Assembly (NCBI GenBank): GCA_964522265.1
Contig: CAZFVS010000013.1
Location: 1,373-8,640, forward strand
Source of the DNA: an uncultured Gammaproteobacteria bacterium
GTDB lineage: Bacteria; Patescibacteriota; Microgenomatia; Daviesbacterales; UBA10151
Length of the DNA stretch: 7,268 nt
Reading direction: 5' to 3'
The translations under genes were made by a program, and so were the position numbers. A model generated the notes under the pieces. That model was not told where the DNA came from, did no database searches, and saw only the letters and a list, made by a program, of their open reading frames with translations. Positions within the stretch are counted from its first letter, which is position 1. The number at the start of each line of letters is the position of its first letter. Shown here piece by piece: positions 2,631-7,268 of the stretch.

Positions 2631-4109
2631 ATGTTTGTAAAAAAAACCGATTTCGGTTATATCAAGGTTATTATTTTAATATTCGGATTACTCCTTTTTT
2701 GGGCTTATACTTTTAAAAACCTAAAAACAGGTACCCAAATCCCAATCTCCACTATCACTGAAGACCAAACAAACCCGGCAATAGGCTCCGTTTGCCAGAA
2801 GGGAGACGGTTCAGTTATAATTGATGCTCCATCATTCCATTTCTCTGATAAAGACGGCAAAATAGCTCCGTCTTGGAGTAGCAACAGACAATATAAAAAA
2901 GTTCTTTCCAATATCCTGGTAAAAGCACTAGAATTTTACGAAGGCCATCATGTATATGACACTAACAATGAAAGAGATTTGCTTTCCGCGGGTGAAAAAT
3001 ACAAAGATCCTGGTACAGGTGTTGAATATAAGATCTACGCGCTCGCCGGCGACAGGAAAAATCCTGATAAATCTGGGGGCACCAGTAATTCTAATTACTG
3101 CAATTCCAAAGTTAGCGAAAAGCCTGAGTGTCAGATTTTTTATGCCGAATACGATATTTTACTTCTAGTAAAGTTAGGCAGTGACGGCAAGCCTGTTACT
3201 GCTGGCGGACCTTTTACAGGCAAGAAAAATACTGATTGGGATGTATTAGTAGCTGCAGATATCTACCAGGCTGTTGACAGCCCCAAGACATTAGCGGACT
3301 GGATGTTGGACTGCCGGTTTGACGAACATGGCAAGCAGATTGGGATCAATAATACAGGAACCGGCACCAATACTCAGGATAGCTCCTCCATCCAGTTCAT
3401 ACCCGAAGACCCTAGCAAAAAAAGTCCTGACCAAAAAGAGCTGCAGCTGGAAACTTTTTATTTAAAAAGAAAGATAACCAGAATCACCACGCCTTCTCAG
3501 GGGACGCTTTTCGCCTTAGGCTGCAAACCGGCAATCTACCTGTATCCCCAAACACCTATCCGGGTTAATGTTAAAGTTAACACTAAAGGCAGTTTTACTT
3601 TTACAGATCCTGTATATCCTCCAGGCGGCTGGAATACACTGGCTACTGCAAATGGTGATATTTTTGTTGATGAACAAAAATATCCTTATTTGTATTATGA
3701 ATCTAAAATTCCGGATGAATTAGTAAAAATCCCCAGTCAGGGTTTGGTTGTAGAATTTTTCAAGCTAGATTCCCTTTATGATACTCTTTTACCCAATTTA
3801 GGGTTAAATGAAGTTCAAACCAAAGACTTTAAAGACTATTGGTTAAAAACATTACCCTATTCTCCGTATTATTTTGTAGGTATTATGAACCAGGAAGACA
3901 TCAATGCTATTGAACCTTTAGAAATCACTCCAAAACCTGATTTAGTAAGTAGAGTCAGATTATATTTCCAGGCTTTAGACAAAAAAATGGATCCCTCCCT
4001 CCCCAACATACAACCCTCAACTTATAACTCTCAACCTGGTTTCCGGGTTGTAGAATGGGGCGGGATGTTTAAATCAGACCCTCTACATCCTTTTACATGC
4101 TCGCAGTGA
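2631..4109 (+). CDS. Membrane-anchored (N-terminal TM or signal-anchor) two-domain protein of unknown function
   Basis: The long ORF ends at TGA 4107-4109. The ATG at 2631 gives MFVKKTDFGYIKVIILIFGLLLFWAYTF, a basic n-region followed by a hydrophobic helix. The track start at 2595 is a GTG and remains possible. An N-terminal domain spans roughly residues 40-240. A Thr/Gly/Ser/Asn-rich linker (INNTGTGTNTQDSSS) lies at 3344-3388. The C-terminal domain starts at CKPAIYLYPQTPIRVNV (3522). I recognise no catalytic motif. Confidence 0.75.
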   Translation: MFVKKTDFGYIKVIILIFGLLLFWAYTFKNLKTGTQIPISTITEDQTNPAIGSVCQKGDGSVIIDAPSFHFSDKDGKIAPSWSSNRQYKKVLSNILVKALEFYEGHHVYDTNNERDLLSAGEKYKDPGTGVEYKIYALAGDRKNPDKSGGTSNSNYCNSKVSEKPECQIFYAEYDILLLVKLGSDGKPVTAGGPFTGKKNTDWDVLVAADIYQAVDSPKTLADWMLDCRFDEHGKQIGINNTGTGTNTQDSSSIQFIPEDPSKKSPDQKELQLETFYLKRKITRITTPSQGTLFALGCKPAIYLYPQTPIRVNVKVNTKGSFTFTDPVYPPGGWNTLATANGDIFVDEQKYPYLYYESKIPDELVKIPSQGLVVEFFKLDSLYDTLLPNLGLNEVQTKDFKDYWLKTLPYSPYYFVGIMNQEDINAIEPLEITPKPDLVSRVRLYFQALDKKMDPSLPNIQPSTYNSQPGFRVVEWGGMFKSDPLHPFTCSQ

Positions 4110-4113
4110 GCTT

Positions 4114-4461
4114 TTAATTGAATTTAAAGAAAAAATCCTGGCTGCCGCCAAAAACCGTAATTACTACCCGGGTTATAAAAAAAGCCCCCATTACCACTAC
4201 CAGTCCAATCACGGAAAAAAGTAATCTTTTTCTTGCAGAAGCAAGCTTCTCGATATCCCCTCCCGAAAGAATCAATCCCACCCCGGAAAAAATTATAAAA
4301 ATCACTGCTAAAAAAAGCGCTGCCAAAAACAGCAGGTCAAATCCGGTCCCAAAAATATTTTTAAGTATGTCTTCCGGATTACCAGTCAGTGCTTCCGGTA
4401 TCCCGCTGGGGGGTACTACGGGTTGGTTTCCCGGCATTGTAAATTGGGCTATGGTCTTCAT
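4114..4461 (-). CDS. Pilin-like small membrane protein P4
   Basis: The ORF is 115 aa. It has TM1 (LLFLAALFLAVIFIIFSGVGLIL), the loop SGGDIEKLASARKRL and TM2 (VIGLVVVMGAFFITRVVITVF). The loop pattern GGD-x2-K-x3-A-K/R-K-x-L matches P2. The ATG at 4461 lies 4 nt after the Clp stop codon, and the gene's own stop at 4114-4116 lies 4 nt from the convergent TGA at 4107-4109. There is no obvious signal peptide (the N-terminus is MKTIAQFTMPGNQPVVPP). Confidence 0.7.
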   Translation of the reverse strand: MKTIAQFTMPGNQPVVPPSGIPEALTGNPEDILKNIFGTGFDLLFLAALFLAVIFIIFSGVGLILSGGDIEKLASARKRLLFSVIGLVVVMGAFFITRVVITVFGGSQDFFFKFN

Positions 4462-4465
4462 ATTT

Positions 4466-6940
4466 TTACTGGCTTGTTTGGTTGTTTACCGGTTGAACCG
4501 CAGGCTCTTGTGGTAATGGTTGGACTACCCCCACTGTTACAGGTTGAGTGGTTGGTGCAGGTTGAACTGGTTGGATACTCGGTTCAGCAGGTGCCTGGGG
4601 AGGGGGCGGTTGTACATTAGCTGTTTGGGGATGGCTTCTGTTAAATACAAATTTGTCTCTCGTGGGGTCAAAATCAATAATTATTGTATCTCCGGGAGTT
4701 AAATTTTTTTGTATCAGATAGATAGCGATCGGATTTTCAATTGCACGCTGAATCAGCCTCCGTAGCGGCCTTGCCCCATAAACCGGGTCATATCCATCTT
4801 TGGCCAGCTGGTTTAAAGCAGTCTGTGAAATCTGCAGGCCGACATTTTGCTCCTTGAGCATTTTGCGGGTGTTTTCTATTCCCAGCTTGGCTATCTCAAT
4901 CATGTTTGCTTGTGTCAGCGGTTCAAAAATGACTATTTCGTCAAAACGGTTCAAAAACTCCGGCTTAAAGTGTTTGTTGAGCTCATCTATCACCAGTTTT
5001 GAAAGTTTTCTGAACTGTTGGTTATTGTTATCCTGGTTTGTTAAAGATCCCTGGTGGCCTGTTGTTTTTTGTACTTGCTGTATGGGTACTTGGGCAGCTA
5101 TTCCCTGATAATACTGGGTTAAACCAGGCGGGTTTTGCCCTGGCGGTTTTTGCTGGACATTAGGTATTGTGGCGGTTTGTGCTTTTTGGATAAAATCACG
5201 GATCAGGTCAGAACCTACATTTGAGGTAGCGATAATAATAGTATTTTTAAATGAAATAGTATTCCCTTTGTTATCGGTTAAACGCCCATCTTCCAAAATC
5301 TGTAACATAATATTAAATACATCCGGATGGGCTTTTTCAATCTCATCTAAAAGTACTATCGAAAAAGGTTTTTTTCTGACAGCTTCAGTCAGCTGCCCGC
5401 CCTCTTCATATCCCACGTAGCCAGGAGGGGCGCCAATCAGCTTAGCCACTTCGTGCTTCTCCATATACTCACTCATGTCAAGTCTGATCATGGCATCCAT
5501 CTTGCCAAACATGATCTCCGCCAAAACCTTGGCAATTTCGGTTTTACCGGTACCGGTTGGACCAAGGAATATAAAAGAGGCAAACGGCCTGTTTAAGTTA
5601 GCCAATCCAATCCGCCCGCGCCTGACTGCTTCGGCTACTGCTTTTACAGCTCTGTCGTGGTCGATGTATTTTTTATGAATTAAATCCTCAAGGTGCAACA
5701 GTTTTTCGCTTTCTTTTTCTGTAAGTTTGGCCATCGGTATCCCTGTCATAGCAGAAACAATATTGAGAATGTCTGTTTCTTTGACAATAGTATCGTTTCT
5801 TTTTCCTTGGGATTGTTCAAGCCTGATCTCTGAAGCAGACTCATCCAGAAGGTCTATCGCTTTATCCGGCAGATACCTTTCTCCTATGTACCGTTTTGAC
5901 AGCTTTACTGCAGCCTGTAATGCTTCAGGTGCGAAAGTCACCTTATGAAAAGTTTCATACTTTGGCTGCAGCACTTTAAGCATCTGCAGTGCTAGCTCCT
6001 CCGATGGCTCTTCAGCTACCACTGTCTGGAAACGCCTTTCAAAAGCGCGGTCTTTTTCAAAGTACCTCCTGTACTCGGCAGTCGTAGTTGCCCCTATCAC
6101 CTGTATCTGACCTCTAGCCAGGTATGGTTTTAAAATATTTGATGCATCCAAAGCTCCGCCTGTTTCCCCCGCCCCTATAATGGTGTGTATCTCATCAATA
6201 AATAGGATCACTTTGCCGTTTGAAGCTTGGGTTTCTTTGATCACCCTCTGCAGCCTTTCTTCGAATTCCCCTCTGTGTGATGCCCCTGCCACCAAAGAAG
6301 ATACCTCAAGCTGTATAATCTGCCTGTCTGCAAGCTCAGCGGGAACCTGTTTTTGGGCTATTAACTCTGCCAAACCCTCAACAATAGCAGTCTTGCCTGT
6401 CCCTGCTTCGCCGATAATCAGCGGGTTGTTTTTTGTCCTTCGTATCAGTATATGGATCATTCTCCTGATCTCAGTATCACGGCCAGCTACAGGGTCAAGC
6501 TTTCCTGCCCTTGCCGATTCGGTAAGATCTGTCCCGAACTCTTTAAGAGCGCTCTTTTTCCCTGTCTGAAACTCAGTTGATTTGGACAATTTACTCTGGA
6601 TTTTCTCTTTATCAACACCTTGGGTTTTGAGTGACTCTGCTACCGGGGTGGTTGAGGAGAGTATCGCCAGAAGAATATCCTCCGGAGTTATAAATTCTAC
6701 ACCTCTGGTTTTTGCCTGGCTGAAACCCGCTTCCAAAACCTGCTTGCTGGCTTCAGAAAGGGTTGGTTCTCCTGTGAAAGTTCCCAGAGCCTGGTTTTTA
6801 CTCTGAAGCTCTCGGGTTAATTTGGCGATATCTATGGAAAAATCCTGTATTAATTTAAAAATTTCCCGATCAGTAAGCAGTGCCAGAAGTATCTGCTCCG
6901 ACTCAATTAGGGCCAGTTTAAGACTTTTGGTTTCACTCAA
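4466..6940 (-). CDS. Class I Clp/Hsp100 double-AAA+ ATPase, ClpC-like in sequence but lacking a middle domain (main ORF as it stands after an in-frame TAA)
   Basis: D1 Walker A is GEAGTGKT (6389-6412) and D1 Walker B is ILFIDEIHTIIGAG. D2 Walker A is GPTGTGKT (5540-5563) and D2 Walker B is IVLLDEIEKAHPDVFNIMLQILEDGRLTD. The sensor-2 motif is GARPLRR. A Clp_N repeat 2 is visible (SEASKQVLEAGFSQAKTRGVEFITPEDILLAIL). The stretch MIRLDMSEYMEKHEVAKLIGAPPGYVGYEEGGQLTE closely resembles ClpC as I recall it. The track start at 6940 is a TTG with no SD, and the gene very probably begins at 7129 (see the next feature). Confidence 0.95.
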   Translation of the reverse strand: MSETKSLKLALIESEQILLALLTDREIFKLIQDFSIDIAKLTRELQSKNQALGTFTGEPTLSEASKQVLEAGFSQAKTRGVEFITPEDILLAILSSTTPVAESLKTQGVDKEKIQSKLSKSTEFQTGKKSALKEFGTDLTESARAGKLDPVAGRDTEIRRMIHILIRRTKNNPLIIGEAGTGKTAIVEGLAELIAQKQVPAELADRQIIQLEVSSLVAGASHRGEFEERLQRVIKETQASNGKVILFIDEIHTIIGAGETGGALDASNILKPYLARGQIQVIGATTTAEYRRYFEKDRAFERRFQTVVAEEPSEELALQMLKVLQPKYETFHKVTFAPEALQAAVKLSKRYIGERYLPDKAIDLLDESASEIRLEQSQGKRNDTIVKETDILNIVSAMTGIPMAKLTEKESEKLLHLEDLIHKKYIDHDRAVKAVAEAVRRGRIGLANLNRPFASFIFLGPTGTGKTEIAKVLAEIMFGKMDAMIRLDMSEYMEKHEVAKLIGAPPGYVGYEEGGQLTEAVRKKPFSIVLLDEIEKAHPDVFNIMLQILEDGRLTDNKGNTISFKNTIIIATSNVGSDLIRDFIQKAQTATIPNVQQKPPGQNPPGLTQYYQGIAAQVPIQQVQKTTGHQGSLTNQDNNNQQFRKLSKLVIDELNKHFKPEFLNRFDEIVIFEPLTQANMIEIAKLGIENTRKMLKEQNVGLQISQTALNQLAKDGYDPVYGARPLRRLIQRAIENPIAIYLIQKNLTPGDTIIIDFDPTRDKFVFNRSHPQTANVQPPPPQAPAEPSIQPVQPAPTTQPVTVGVVQPLPQEPAVQPVNNQTSQ

Positions 6941-6964
6941 AGCGATTGTTGTGACCTGGGTTTA

Positions 6965-7129
6965 GCGGGGATCCAAGTGTGAAAGGACTGCGATATCCTG
7001 CTGTATGATCGGATTAATAGATGGGGATGCAGATGCCGTCTGAGGCTGGTTTTGAGTCGGCTGAGGTTCAACTACAGTTGCAGCTCCACTTTTGCTGTTT
7101 TTAAAGATCGTTTCAAATAAAGATGCCAT
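6965..7129 (-). CDS. 55-codon ORF, the probable true 5' part of the Clp ATPase gene, cut off from it by one in-frame TAA (6962-6964)
   Basis: Hand translation from the ATG at 7129..7127 gives MASLFETIFKNSKSGAATVVEPQPTQNQPQTASASPSINPIIQQDIAVLSHLDPR, then TAA. It is in the same frame as the Clp ORF, since 7129-6940 = 189 nt = 63 codons. It is not in the supplied track, probably because it falls below the length cutoff. A promoter-like element lies directly upstream. Confidence 0.55.
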
Positions 7130-7154
7130 GGGCAGGTATAATCTTTCTTTAATT

Positions 7155-7183
7155 ATTATATACTACGGCTTTTAAAAAGTGAA
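7155..7183 (-). promoter_or_regulatory. Candidate sigma70-type promoter of the Clp ATPase gene
   Basis: The minus strand has TTCACT at 7183..7178. After exactly 17 nt comes a perfect TATAAT at 7160..7155, about 25 nt upstream of the ATG at 7129. The -35 element overlaps the last codons of the upstream gene. Confidence 0.4.
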
Positions 7184-7267
7184 TCTTTTTAATCTTTTTT
7201 CATATTCTTTCAATATCTTCTCCCTCAAATCTTCAGGATGAAAATATAAAGCACTCTCTGATATCCT
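7172..7267 (-). CDS. 3' end of an unidentified protein-coding gene (partial, runs off the window)
   Basis: This is the only minus-strand frame that stays open to the window edge. It reads ...RISESALYFHPEDLREKILKEYEKRLKRFTF and ends at TAA 7172-7174. The other two minus-strand frames hit stops within about 40 nt. With only 31 residues, no family can be assigned. Confidence 0.35.
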   Translation of the reverse strand, partial: RISESALYFHPEDLREKILKEYEKRLKRFTF

Positions 7268-7268
7268 C

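Follow-up and report, generated by a model that had tools for sequence, protein, structure and literature searches.

A single in-frame TAA interrupts a Clp/Hsp100 ATPase gene on the minus strand of the stretch of DNA analyzed here (7,268 nt, hereafter the window), near the 5′ end of the gene. Comparison with homologs supports the view that the 55-codon ORF ahead of this stop and the 824-codon Clp ORF behind it are one gene, built to start at the ATG at 7129, and we hold with moderate confidence that the stop is a genuine, evolutionarily recent nonsense allele of that gene in the sampled population. We see in the interruption an ordinary nonsense mutation (or else a miscalled base) through which the annotated protein comes to start too late, and not a new genetic element.

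A Clp gene in two pieces

The list of ORFs carries the gene as two pieces, one at 6962..7129 (55 aa) and one at 4466..6940 (824 aa). The latter is 100% identical to a public, NCBI-derived protein of 824 aa (P0001), and because P0001 begins MSETKSLK, the TTG at 6940 is the annotated start. An earlier note on this DNA had placed the ATG at 7129, its 55 codons, the TAA at 6964..6962, the codons TQVTTIA and the TTG at 6940 in one frame; translation of the minus strand, on which the ATG occupies 7129..7127, confirmed every one of these positions and the shared frame. The features are as follows.

4466..7129, minus strand: whole ancestral Clp gene; 888 codons with the terminal stop counted, for a product of 887 aa were the internal TAA a sense codon
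6965..7129, minus strand: leader ORF, by the ORF list and homology the actual N-terminal part of the Clp ATPase; 55 codons, MASLFETIF...DIAVLSHLDPR
6962..6964, minus strand: in-frame TAA, read directly; an Ala/Ser/Thr column in homologs and the third residue of the predicted N-domain helix A1
6941..6961, minus strand: seven codons, TQVTTIA, from the stop to the annotated start; N-terminal half of predicted helix A1
6938..6940, minus strand: TTG at which the annotated 824-aa product starts, 21 nt past the TAA; its counterpart in the closest ortholog (P0002) is Tyr66, midway along predicted helix A1
4466..6940, minus strand: truncated class-I Clp/Hsp100 ATPase ORF as annotated, from its domain matches; 824 aa, ending in TAA
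7155..7183, minus strand: promoter-like site, from its consensus match; TTCACT at 7183..7178, a 17-nt spacer, TATAAT at 7160..7155
7172..7268, minus strand: 3′ end of the upstream gene (...KRLKRFTF; TAA at 7174..7172), also found ahead of the Clp gene in the ortholog locus

The leader comprises the MASLFETIF motif, a low-complexity linker of Q, P, T and S residues, and a INPIIQQDIAVLSHLDPR motif that runs into helix A1. When the leader was compared with P0002, residue 1 aligned with residue 1 and 44 of 57 positions were identical to residues 1–57 of the ortholog (E=4e-24); it is because of this homology that we regard the leader as more than a chance ORF (by our own estimate, at 40% G+C an open frame of 55 codons has a chance probability of ~0.03). 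P0002, which is 87% identical, has 887 aa, exactly the length of the read-through product. The genes in the window and in the ortholog locus (L001) are of equal length (2,664 nt) and collinear from residue 1, and the start context CCTGCCCATGGC is kept between them. Among the 120 best homologs, 119 are uninterrupted at the point of the stop, the sole exception being the gene's own annotated product, and the leader motif was likewise found in 119 of the 120. Residues F9, P40, S50, D53 and R55 are invariant in a 29-sequence alignment (A2). The gene was thus, as had been proposed, meant to start at 7129 and is split by the TAA within the first helix of the N-domain, and the comparison of ortholog 5′ ends that had been suggested as a check reveals a homologous upstream extension. 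The 824-aa protein on deposit has been called too short at its N-terminus; the locus is better annotated as an 887-codon full-length gene interrupted by a stop, whether as pseudogene or as nonsense allele, or else corrected if the codon proves to be a sense codon.

A second suggested check, a search of the read-through translation with Clp_N (PF02861), is misleading if used alone: the alignment starts at residue 63, one before the TTG, and does not cross the stop. The repeat model spans 53 positions, and we judge its failure to cross the stop a limitation of the model. In its place we used full-length NCBIfam models together with a family profile compared with the PDB. On the intact P0002, the full-length ClpB and ClpA family models align from residue 57, one before Ala58, the equivalent of the stop; on the truncated product, the same two models align only from model positions 16–22. 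The family profile, when aligned with solved ClpC N-domains, pairs LDxR-A-TQV with the TER-A-QKV of ClpC (...TERAQKVL...). A BLASTP comparison of an N-terminal fragment of P0002 with a B. subtilis ClpC N-domain gave no alignment.

The TTCACT-17-TATAAT site upstream of the ATG at 7129, also singled out in the earlier note, matches the consensus at 10 of 12 positions and is the top promoter-like match within 4000..7268; its −35 hexamer overlaps the final codons of the upstream gene (whose counterpart in L001 encodes a 307-aa product with a faint match to NTP_transf_2). The consensus match is the support for the site, its sequence not being conserved in L001. The Clp gene is probably transcribed from this site, and what had been described as a hidden ORF with a promoter of its own is simply the 5′ end of the Clp gene with the gene's own promoter. 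It is true, as had also been pointed out, that the TTG at 6940 has no Shine-Dalgarno sequence, but this does not serve as an argument: one is lacking at the ATG at 7129 as well, and at most of the other starts in the window (the sole instance is the aaaggag at AbiEii), so the absence of a Shine-Dalgarno sequence cannot discriminate between the TTG and the ATG.

The stop column and helix A1

In the AlphaFold model of P0002, helix A1 spans residues 56–71 and the stop corresponds to residue 58 (pLDDT by block 86–93 over residues 51–80). On this model, the stop is in the first turn of helix A1 of the Clp N-domain. A start at the TTG would strip 10 of the 16 residues of the modeled helix together with the family-wide N-terminal extension, and the model places the TTG in the middle of the helix and not at a domain boundary. 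Of 119 homologs, only 17 have Leu in the column of the TTG, where the sister sequence has TAT (Tyr).

In homologs the column of the stop most often holds Ala (66), followed by Ser (23) and Thr (16), and seldom Met (4), Leu (2) or Gly (1); its codon is GCA in P0002, TCA in P0003 (the second-closest ortholog) and AGC in P0007. Judging from these orthologs, the ancestral codon was likely TCA or GCA, and not the leucine codon TTA, to which the earlier note had pointed as one substitution away from TAA. The related claim that the stop occupies a Leu or Phe column stands for E. coli ClpB, where the match to Leu6 holds (the query having had Leu placed at that position), and fails for ClpC, which has an alanine in this column, and for the Ala, Ser or Thr of the orthologs. 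We take the alanine within TERAQKVL of ClpC to be Ala10 of the B. subtilis protein, and not Phe6.

Origin of the stop codon

The interruption has the features of a nonsense disruption: an in-frame stop lies within a segment homologous to orthologs that are uninterrupted at that column. As in other nonsense-interrupted genes of metagenome-assembled genomes (MAGs), one in-frame stop falls in a region collinear with orthologs, and the gene caller takes the next start (here the TTG), giving P0001. Nothing essential sets the gene apart from such cases, and with no others beside it and a low dN/dS, the lesion is either very young or artefactual. Under the reading we favor, that of a real and recent nonsense allele, the TAA would have arisen by a point substitution in the codon of the third helix A1 residue, most economically from TCA (Ser) through a change of base 6963; this one-step path is available because P0003 has TCA, one transversion from TAA, at the stop column. 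Ribosomes would then terminate after the 55-aa peptide, with at best a minority re-initiating at the TTG, 21 nt downstream and lacking a Shine-Dalgarno sequence, and the TQVTTIA codons would go untranslated if termination at the TAA is efficient. A re-initiated product would be an ATPase without the N-terminal extension, its N-domain impaired by the shortening of helix A1. The AAA+ rings still work in N-domain-less variants of ClpB, ClpA and ClpC, and the two rings of the truncated product could likewise still work; otherwise the gene would be a young pseudogene. If the allele is real, a Daviesbacteria-like population carries a crippled chaperone or unfoldase that is strongly conserved in its relatives, which would add a modest point on gene loss in reduced genomes.

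The age of the lesion can be gauged from the pattern of substitutions. Relative to the ortholog, dN/dS is 0.049 in the leader and 0.045 in the rest of the gene, with no frameshifts and all conserved leader residues intact; because the leader has the dN/dS of the rest of the gene, the lesion must be recent or artefactual. We found neither further lesions nor relaxed selection over the gene as a whole, and signs of relaxation are confined to a local cluster of atypical residues at 56–77. Within the 22 residues from the stop onward, 7 are rare (≤3%) in homologs, against a background of 3.7%, making this the densest such stretch in the protein (permutation p=0.0004); T60, for example, occupies a position that is Leu, Ile, Val or Met in all 119 homologs. 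Three derived substitutions (E65S, R69S and P77S) fall within 21 residues, versus 7 in the other 865 (p=0.0014), and the segment after the stop is the only folded segment that has diverged from P0002 as far as the disordered linkers have. These cluster statistics rest on very few substitutions, and a relative-rate test against the sister lineage was not significant (3:0 versus 7:9, p=0.21). The atypical residues do not stem from a compensated frameshift, since the codons align in register with those of L001 throughout. The cluster mildly favors a real allele over an error. Simple relaxation after the stop is a somewhat poor fit to an intact leader beside diverged residues 57–77: the leader shows none of the ~2.6 decay events expected (by our own Poisson estimate ~0.07, not significant), and residues 57–77 do show decay.

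Of the three explanations offered in the earlier note, a nonsense mutation and a sequence error both remain, and programmed readthrough is disfavored by a stop that is not conserved and by the lack of RNA structure around it. We think an error less likely than a real allele. The gene of the organism would then be intact, with a TAA introduced during base calling, polishing or consensus building, or taken into the MAG consensus from a minority strain. A clean gene under strong purifying selection with no other lesion is also what an artefact is expected to look like. The interruption is present in only 1 of the 120 best homologs and amounts to one differing codon; in all else the gene is perfectly collinear, with a dN/dS of ~0.05 and fully intact leader motifs. 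Furthermore, the sequence is known from a single sampling, a contig of 15.9 kb. We found no independent sampling of the population: exact searches for the source contig with the truncated protein, P0001, the 55-aa ORF and AbiEii gave no match, stop-spanning DNA patterns with NNN at the codon were unmatched in genome_contigs and metagenome_contigs, and searches for related loci returned only the known Daviesbacteria ortholog and one locus of 40% identity. However, atypical in-frame substitutions flank the stop, which looks more like lineage-specific evolution than one miscall, and the Pfam-matched ORFs of the window include no further gene that is evidently broken. Stop-creating substitution errors are also rare in short-read consensus assemblies, although the platform used here may differ.

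We consider it improbable that the stop is real and tolerated, or even selected, as part of a functional split in which a 55-aa peptide with conserved motifs is made alongside a Clp ATPase re-initiated at the TTG at 6940. That a start-capable TTG lies 21 nt past the stop, in a column where Leu is uncommon and the sister has Tyr, is consistent with such a split, as is the retention of the conserved leader residues while residues 57–77 diverged. Against it, the TTG lacks a Shine-Dalgarno sequence and would start the protein within helix A1, the arrangement was seen in no other homolog, and the substitution statistics it draws on come from very few changes. A phmmer search of 1.84 billion representatives with the 55-aa peptide, a short, low-complexity query of little power, found no stand-alone homolog; the sole match, a family member of 126 aa, runs uninterrupted through the point of the stop. 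The nearest precedent is E. coli ClpB-80, an N-domain-less isoform whose internal start is conserved, lies at a domain boundary and needs no stop codon. Here, too, a shortened Clp ATPase could be translated from an in-frame internal start other than ATG; unlike the start of ClpB-80, the TTG in the window falls within helix A1, comes after a nonsense codon peculiar to this sequence and is not common to the family. A less likely variant of the split is that low-level readthrough of the TAA sets the dose of full-length protein. Were the split real, it would be a natural experiment on the role of the Patescibacteria-specific N-terminal extension and helix A1.

Programmed readthrough or recoding, by which the TAA would be decoded as sense to give the 887-aa protein at a regulated level, or genome-wide reassignment of TAA, seems to us very improbable. 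In their favor, the frame is kept perfectly on both sides of the stop in a gene otherwise under purifying selection, but the stop is conserved in none of the 119 homologs (the further, 126-aa homolog is continuous as well), and the 96 nt around and after it fold no better than shuffled sequences (z=+1.0). The stop reads TAA-A in context, and of the three stop codons TAA, which both release factors recognize, is the least leaky. The window has no tRNA gene, and we know of no bacterial lineage in which TAA is reassigned. TAA ends the Clp gene (Pfam match) and four other window ORFs, of which the two pilin-like genes and AbiEii have Pfam matches and the upstream gene fragment has none; TAG ends one pilin-like gene (Pfam match), and TGA ends AbiEi (Pfam match) and a 504-aa ORF with no Pfam match. 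Each stop codon thus ends at least one Pfam-matched ORF, in agreement with the earlier view that there is no sign of reassignment.

The remaining idea, that the leader is a chance or unrelated small ORF, with the TTG as the real start of the Clp gene, draws on the late onset of the Pfam Clp_N repeat and is hardly tenable, being refuted by the continuity of the homologs, by the match of the leader to the ortholog N-terminus, by its possession of the family's most conserved N-terminal motif, and by the alignment of full-length family models and solved ClpC N-domains upstream of the TTG.

Domain composition and relation to ClpA, ClpB and ClpC

Judged by its sequence, the protein is a Patescibacteria (Daviesbacteria-type) class-I Clp/Hsp100 ATPase. 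The 824-aa ORF matches Clp_N in two stretches (repeats 1 and 2, at read-through residues 63–110 and 137–183), AAA (237–368), AAA_lid_9, AAA_2 (514–732) and ClpB_D2-small (738–818), and thus has the double Clp_N repeat and the D1 and D2 AAA+ modules with a D2-small domain that define the class. These elements are shared with ClpA, ClpB and ClpC, and the best matches of solved structure are ClpB and ClpC. The 824-aa ORF nevertheless falls under the NCBIfam equivalog cut-offs for ClpB, ClpA and ClpV, and so does P0002, which scores 871 bits versus 1232 with ClpB (TIGR03346), 716 versus 993 with ClpA (TIGR02639) and 668 versus 885 with ClpV1 (TIGR03345).

Unlike ClpA, ClpB and ClpC, members of this family have an N-terminal extension of 35–134 residues ahead of the LSHLDxR motif that enters helix A1; a search of the literature on an N-terminal extension of ClpC in Patescibacteria found nothing relevant. 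The common N-terminal extension and atypical D2 loop of the Microgenomates-type Patescibacteria relatives, of which we found no description, are in our view more interesting than the stop. In place of the usual ClpP-docking loop of ClpA- and ClpC-type partners of ClpP, the family has a Q/P-rich insertion. The ClpP-docking tripeptide, sought as a sequence pattern only ([ILVMF]G[FLIM]) in the D2 loop region, is absent in 116 of 120 sequences, including that of the window, and the closest members carry YYQG[IV]AA in the D2 loop. By our own reading of the AlphaFold model of P0002, the coiled-coil middle (M) domain that ClpB and ClpC have as an insertion in the D1 small domain is not evident: we saw no extended coiled coil in the short sequence that joins the D1 lid to D2.

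Layout and N-terminus of the Clp gene

The earlier note had described a Clp gene that opens at an ATG and is interrupted by an in-frame TAA, and the minus-strand sequence agrees with that layout exactly.

Features at the 5' end of the Clp gene
7183..7155, minus: promoter-like TTCACT-17-TATAAT (10/12 positions match)
7174..7172, minus: TAA ending the upstream gene (sequence read)
7129, minus: leader ATG (read directly and translated)
Downstream of ATG 7129, minus: leader, 55 sense codons, MASLFETIFKNSKSGAATVVEPQPTQNQPQTASASPSINPIIQQDIAVLSHLDPR (translation)
6965-7129, minus: N-terminal extension; also at 6001-6171 of L001, the locus of the closest ortholog, and at the gene starts of two further ortholog loci, L006 and L007 (motif comparison)
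6964..6962, minus: in-frame TAA (sequence read)
Between the TAA and TTG 6940, minus: seven codons, TQVTTIA (translation)
6940, minus: TTG opening an 824-aa ORF that ends with the TAA at 4466 (ORF listing)

The public, NCBI-derived protein of this gene (P0001) is 100% identical to the 824-aa ORF and begins MSETKSLK; the TTG is thus the annotated start, as had been stated. The promoter-like element claimed upstream of the ATG is present and is the best such site in 3.3 kb, its -35 hexamer overlapping the final codons of the same-strand upstream gene. No Shine-Dalgarno site precedes the TTG, although most starts in the window likewise lack one.

Comparison of ortholog 5' ends bears out the view that this is one Clp gene, starting at ATG 7129 and split by the TAA. 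In a protein search, the closest relative of the conceptual read-through was P0002, from a groundwater MAG of Candidatus Daviesbacteria (GCA_016186955.1), which is 87% identical and, at 887 aa, has exactly the read-through length. The two genes are of equal length (2664 nt), have the start context CCTGCCCATGGC in common, and lie between the same two neighbours, an upstream gene and a downstream pilin-like gene. The leader is collinear with P0002 from residue 1 (44/57 identities, E=4e-24), the alignment ending one residue before the stop column. A homologous extension is found in 119/120 of the best homologs, the sole sequence without it being P0001, the truncated annotation of the window gene itself.

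The extension is built from an M-x-LF-x-x-(L/I)F motif, a linker of low complexity and an NP..QD..LSHLDxR motif, and its best-conserved residues directly precede the stop (S50, D53 and R55 invariant; H51 and L52 nearly so). The stop column itself is occupied in homologs by Ala (66), Ser (23), Thr (16), Met (4), Leu (2) or Gly (1). The corresponding codons are GCA in P0002, TCA in the second-closest ortholog (P0003) and AGC in another (P0007), so that TCA to TAA, by a change at base 6963, is an attested one-step path. The extension is shared by the Clp family of Daviesbacteria and other Microgenomates-type Patescibacteria, with LSHLDxR starting 35-134 residues from the N-terminus; a literature search on it found nothing.

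Position of the stop in the N-domain

When the Pfam Clp_N model was run on the read-through, as the earlier note had suggested, the alignment of this short repeat model began at residue 63 and therefore stopped short of crossing the TAA. Full-length ClpB and ClpA models, by comparison, align with the intact ortholog from residue 57 on, the stop being equivalent there to Ala58, and on the truncated product they align only from model positions 16-22. When a profile of family N-termini was aligned to solved ClpC N-domains, LDxR-A-TQVL lay opposite TER-A-QKVL, placing the stop at a ClpC alanine, which we take to be Ala10 of B. subtilis ClpC, rather than at Phe6 as had been suggested. The proposed equivalence with Leu6 of E. 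coli ClpB agrees with the alignment, but the query had Leu inserted at the stop position. Within the extension, SHLDxR is matched to IHYTPR, the stretch ahead of repeat 2 in ClpC.

The AlphaFold model of P0002 (mean pLDDT 78.5) shows residues 1-42 as disordered and helix A1 as spanning residues 56-71, with a block pLDDT of 86-93 over residues 51-80; the stop is thus the third residue of the helix. The TTG is equivalent to Tyr66, mid-helix, and a product started there would, on this model, lack the entire extension together with 10/16 residues of helix A1.

Explanations for the stop

Relative to P0002, dN/dS (Nei-Gojobori, with synonymous sites close to saturation) is 0.049 for the leader and 0.045 for the rest of the gene; pN is 0.054 in the conserved parts of the leader versus 0.066 downstream, and neither a frameshift nor a further stop is present. 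Through essentially the whole divergence, therefore, the upstream piece has been coding sequence under selection, and the stop is recent or artefactual.

A recent, real nonsense allele is the reading we favor, if only somewhat. Residues 56-77 (window 6899-6964, minus; helix A1 and the A1-A2 loop), which begin at the stop, form the protein's densest cluster of unusual residues: 7/22 (background 3.7%) are residues seen at a frequency of <=3% in 119 homologs (p=0.0004, permutation test on the window maximum). They include T60, where all other homologs have Leu, Ile, Val or Met, and S77, where 115/119 have Pro. Derived substitutions, polarised strictly against outgroups, are also concentrated there (E65S, R69S and P77S, 3 in 21 residues versus 7 in the other 865; p=0.0014), although the comparison to the sister lineage falls short of significance (p=0.21). 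No other folded segment has diverged from P0002 to the extent that the disordered linkers have. A compensated frameshift as the source of these residues was rejected, the codon alignment being in register. The cluster is weak evidence that helix A1 has truly relaxed or changed in this lineage and tilts the balance toward a genuine allele; its counts are small, however, and it fits imperfectly with an undecayed leader. Relaxation following the stop, a lineage-specific change that came earlier and locally poor sequence quality could each account for it.

A consensus or base-call error, making the stop a sequence artefact, is a possible but less probable explanation; we looked for independent sampling of the source population and found none. 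A functional split, or an N-truncated isoform re-initiated at the TTG, is unlikely: the TTG lacks a Shine-Dalgarno site (as do most starts in the window), and we found neither a second split member of the family nor a stand-alone leader homolog. Programmed readthrough, which the earlier note had offered as one of three explanations, or reassignment of the codon is more doubtful still. Among the 120 best homologs the stop is confined to this sequence, the surrounding RNA has no more structure than shuffled sequences (z=+1.0), the window contains no tRNA gene, and TAA is the least leaky stop. TAA also terminates the same Clp gene, two pilin-like genes, AbiEii and the upstream gene, in line with the earlier view that there is no sign of genome-wide reassignment. 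That the leader is a chance ORF or a separate small gene is refuted by the ortholog match, the 119 homologs and the ClpB/ClpA models. The phenomenon is of an ordinary, already-known kind, in which a conserved gene acquires one premature stop and the gene caller takes the next start.

Clp family and neighbouring genes

The protein is a class-I Clp/Hsp100 ATPase (two Clp_N, AAA, AAA_lid_9, AAA_2, ClpB_D2-small) with no evident M-domain, and its scores do not reach the NCBIfam equivalog cut-offs for ClpB, ClpA or ClpV. Where ClpA, ClpC and ClpX have the D2 loop that bears the ClpP-docking tripeptide, it has instead a Q/P/N-rich insertion of 40-90 residues. An [ILVMF]G[FLIM] motif is absent from it in 116/120 family members, and the closest relatives have YYQG[IV]AA in place of the tripeptide. 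The C-terminal ~55 residues form a P/Q/V-rich low-complexity tail (PQTANVQPPPPQAPAEPSIQPVQPAPTTQPV...; window 4466-4640, minus), which is variable across the family and predicted to be disordered in the ortholog (pLDDT<50 from residue 844).

D2 insertion and neighbouring genes
About 4964-5212, minus: Q/P/N-rich D2 insertion, read-through residues 640-722 (from sequence; disordered in the model)
4114-4461, minus: T4SS_pilin gene (PF18895); counterparts at L001 8668-9024, L006 3027-3330 and L007 3086-3318
2595-4109, plus: 504-aa ORF with GTG start (ORF listing)
1243-2546, plus: AbiEi antitoxin/AbiEii nucleotidyltransferase toxin pair (Pfam)
690-1178 and 300-629, minus: two further pilin-like genes

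Directly 3' of the Clp gene, and on its strand, lies the small T4SS_pilin gene, both in the window, where it starts 4 nt past the Clp stop, and in each of the three ortholog loci examined. AbiEi and AbiEii, a type IV toxin-antitoxin system of the abortive-infection type, overlap at ATGA (1836-1839); neither Pfam family was matched by any gene called near the Clp gene in L001. The 504-aa ORF had no Pfam match at E<=0.01. It is on the strand opposite the Clp gene, convergent with the pilin gene, and its counterpart position in L001 is occupied by an unannotated 441-aa gene.
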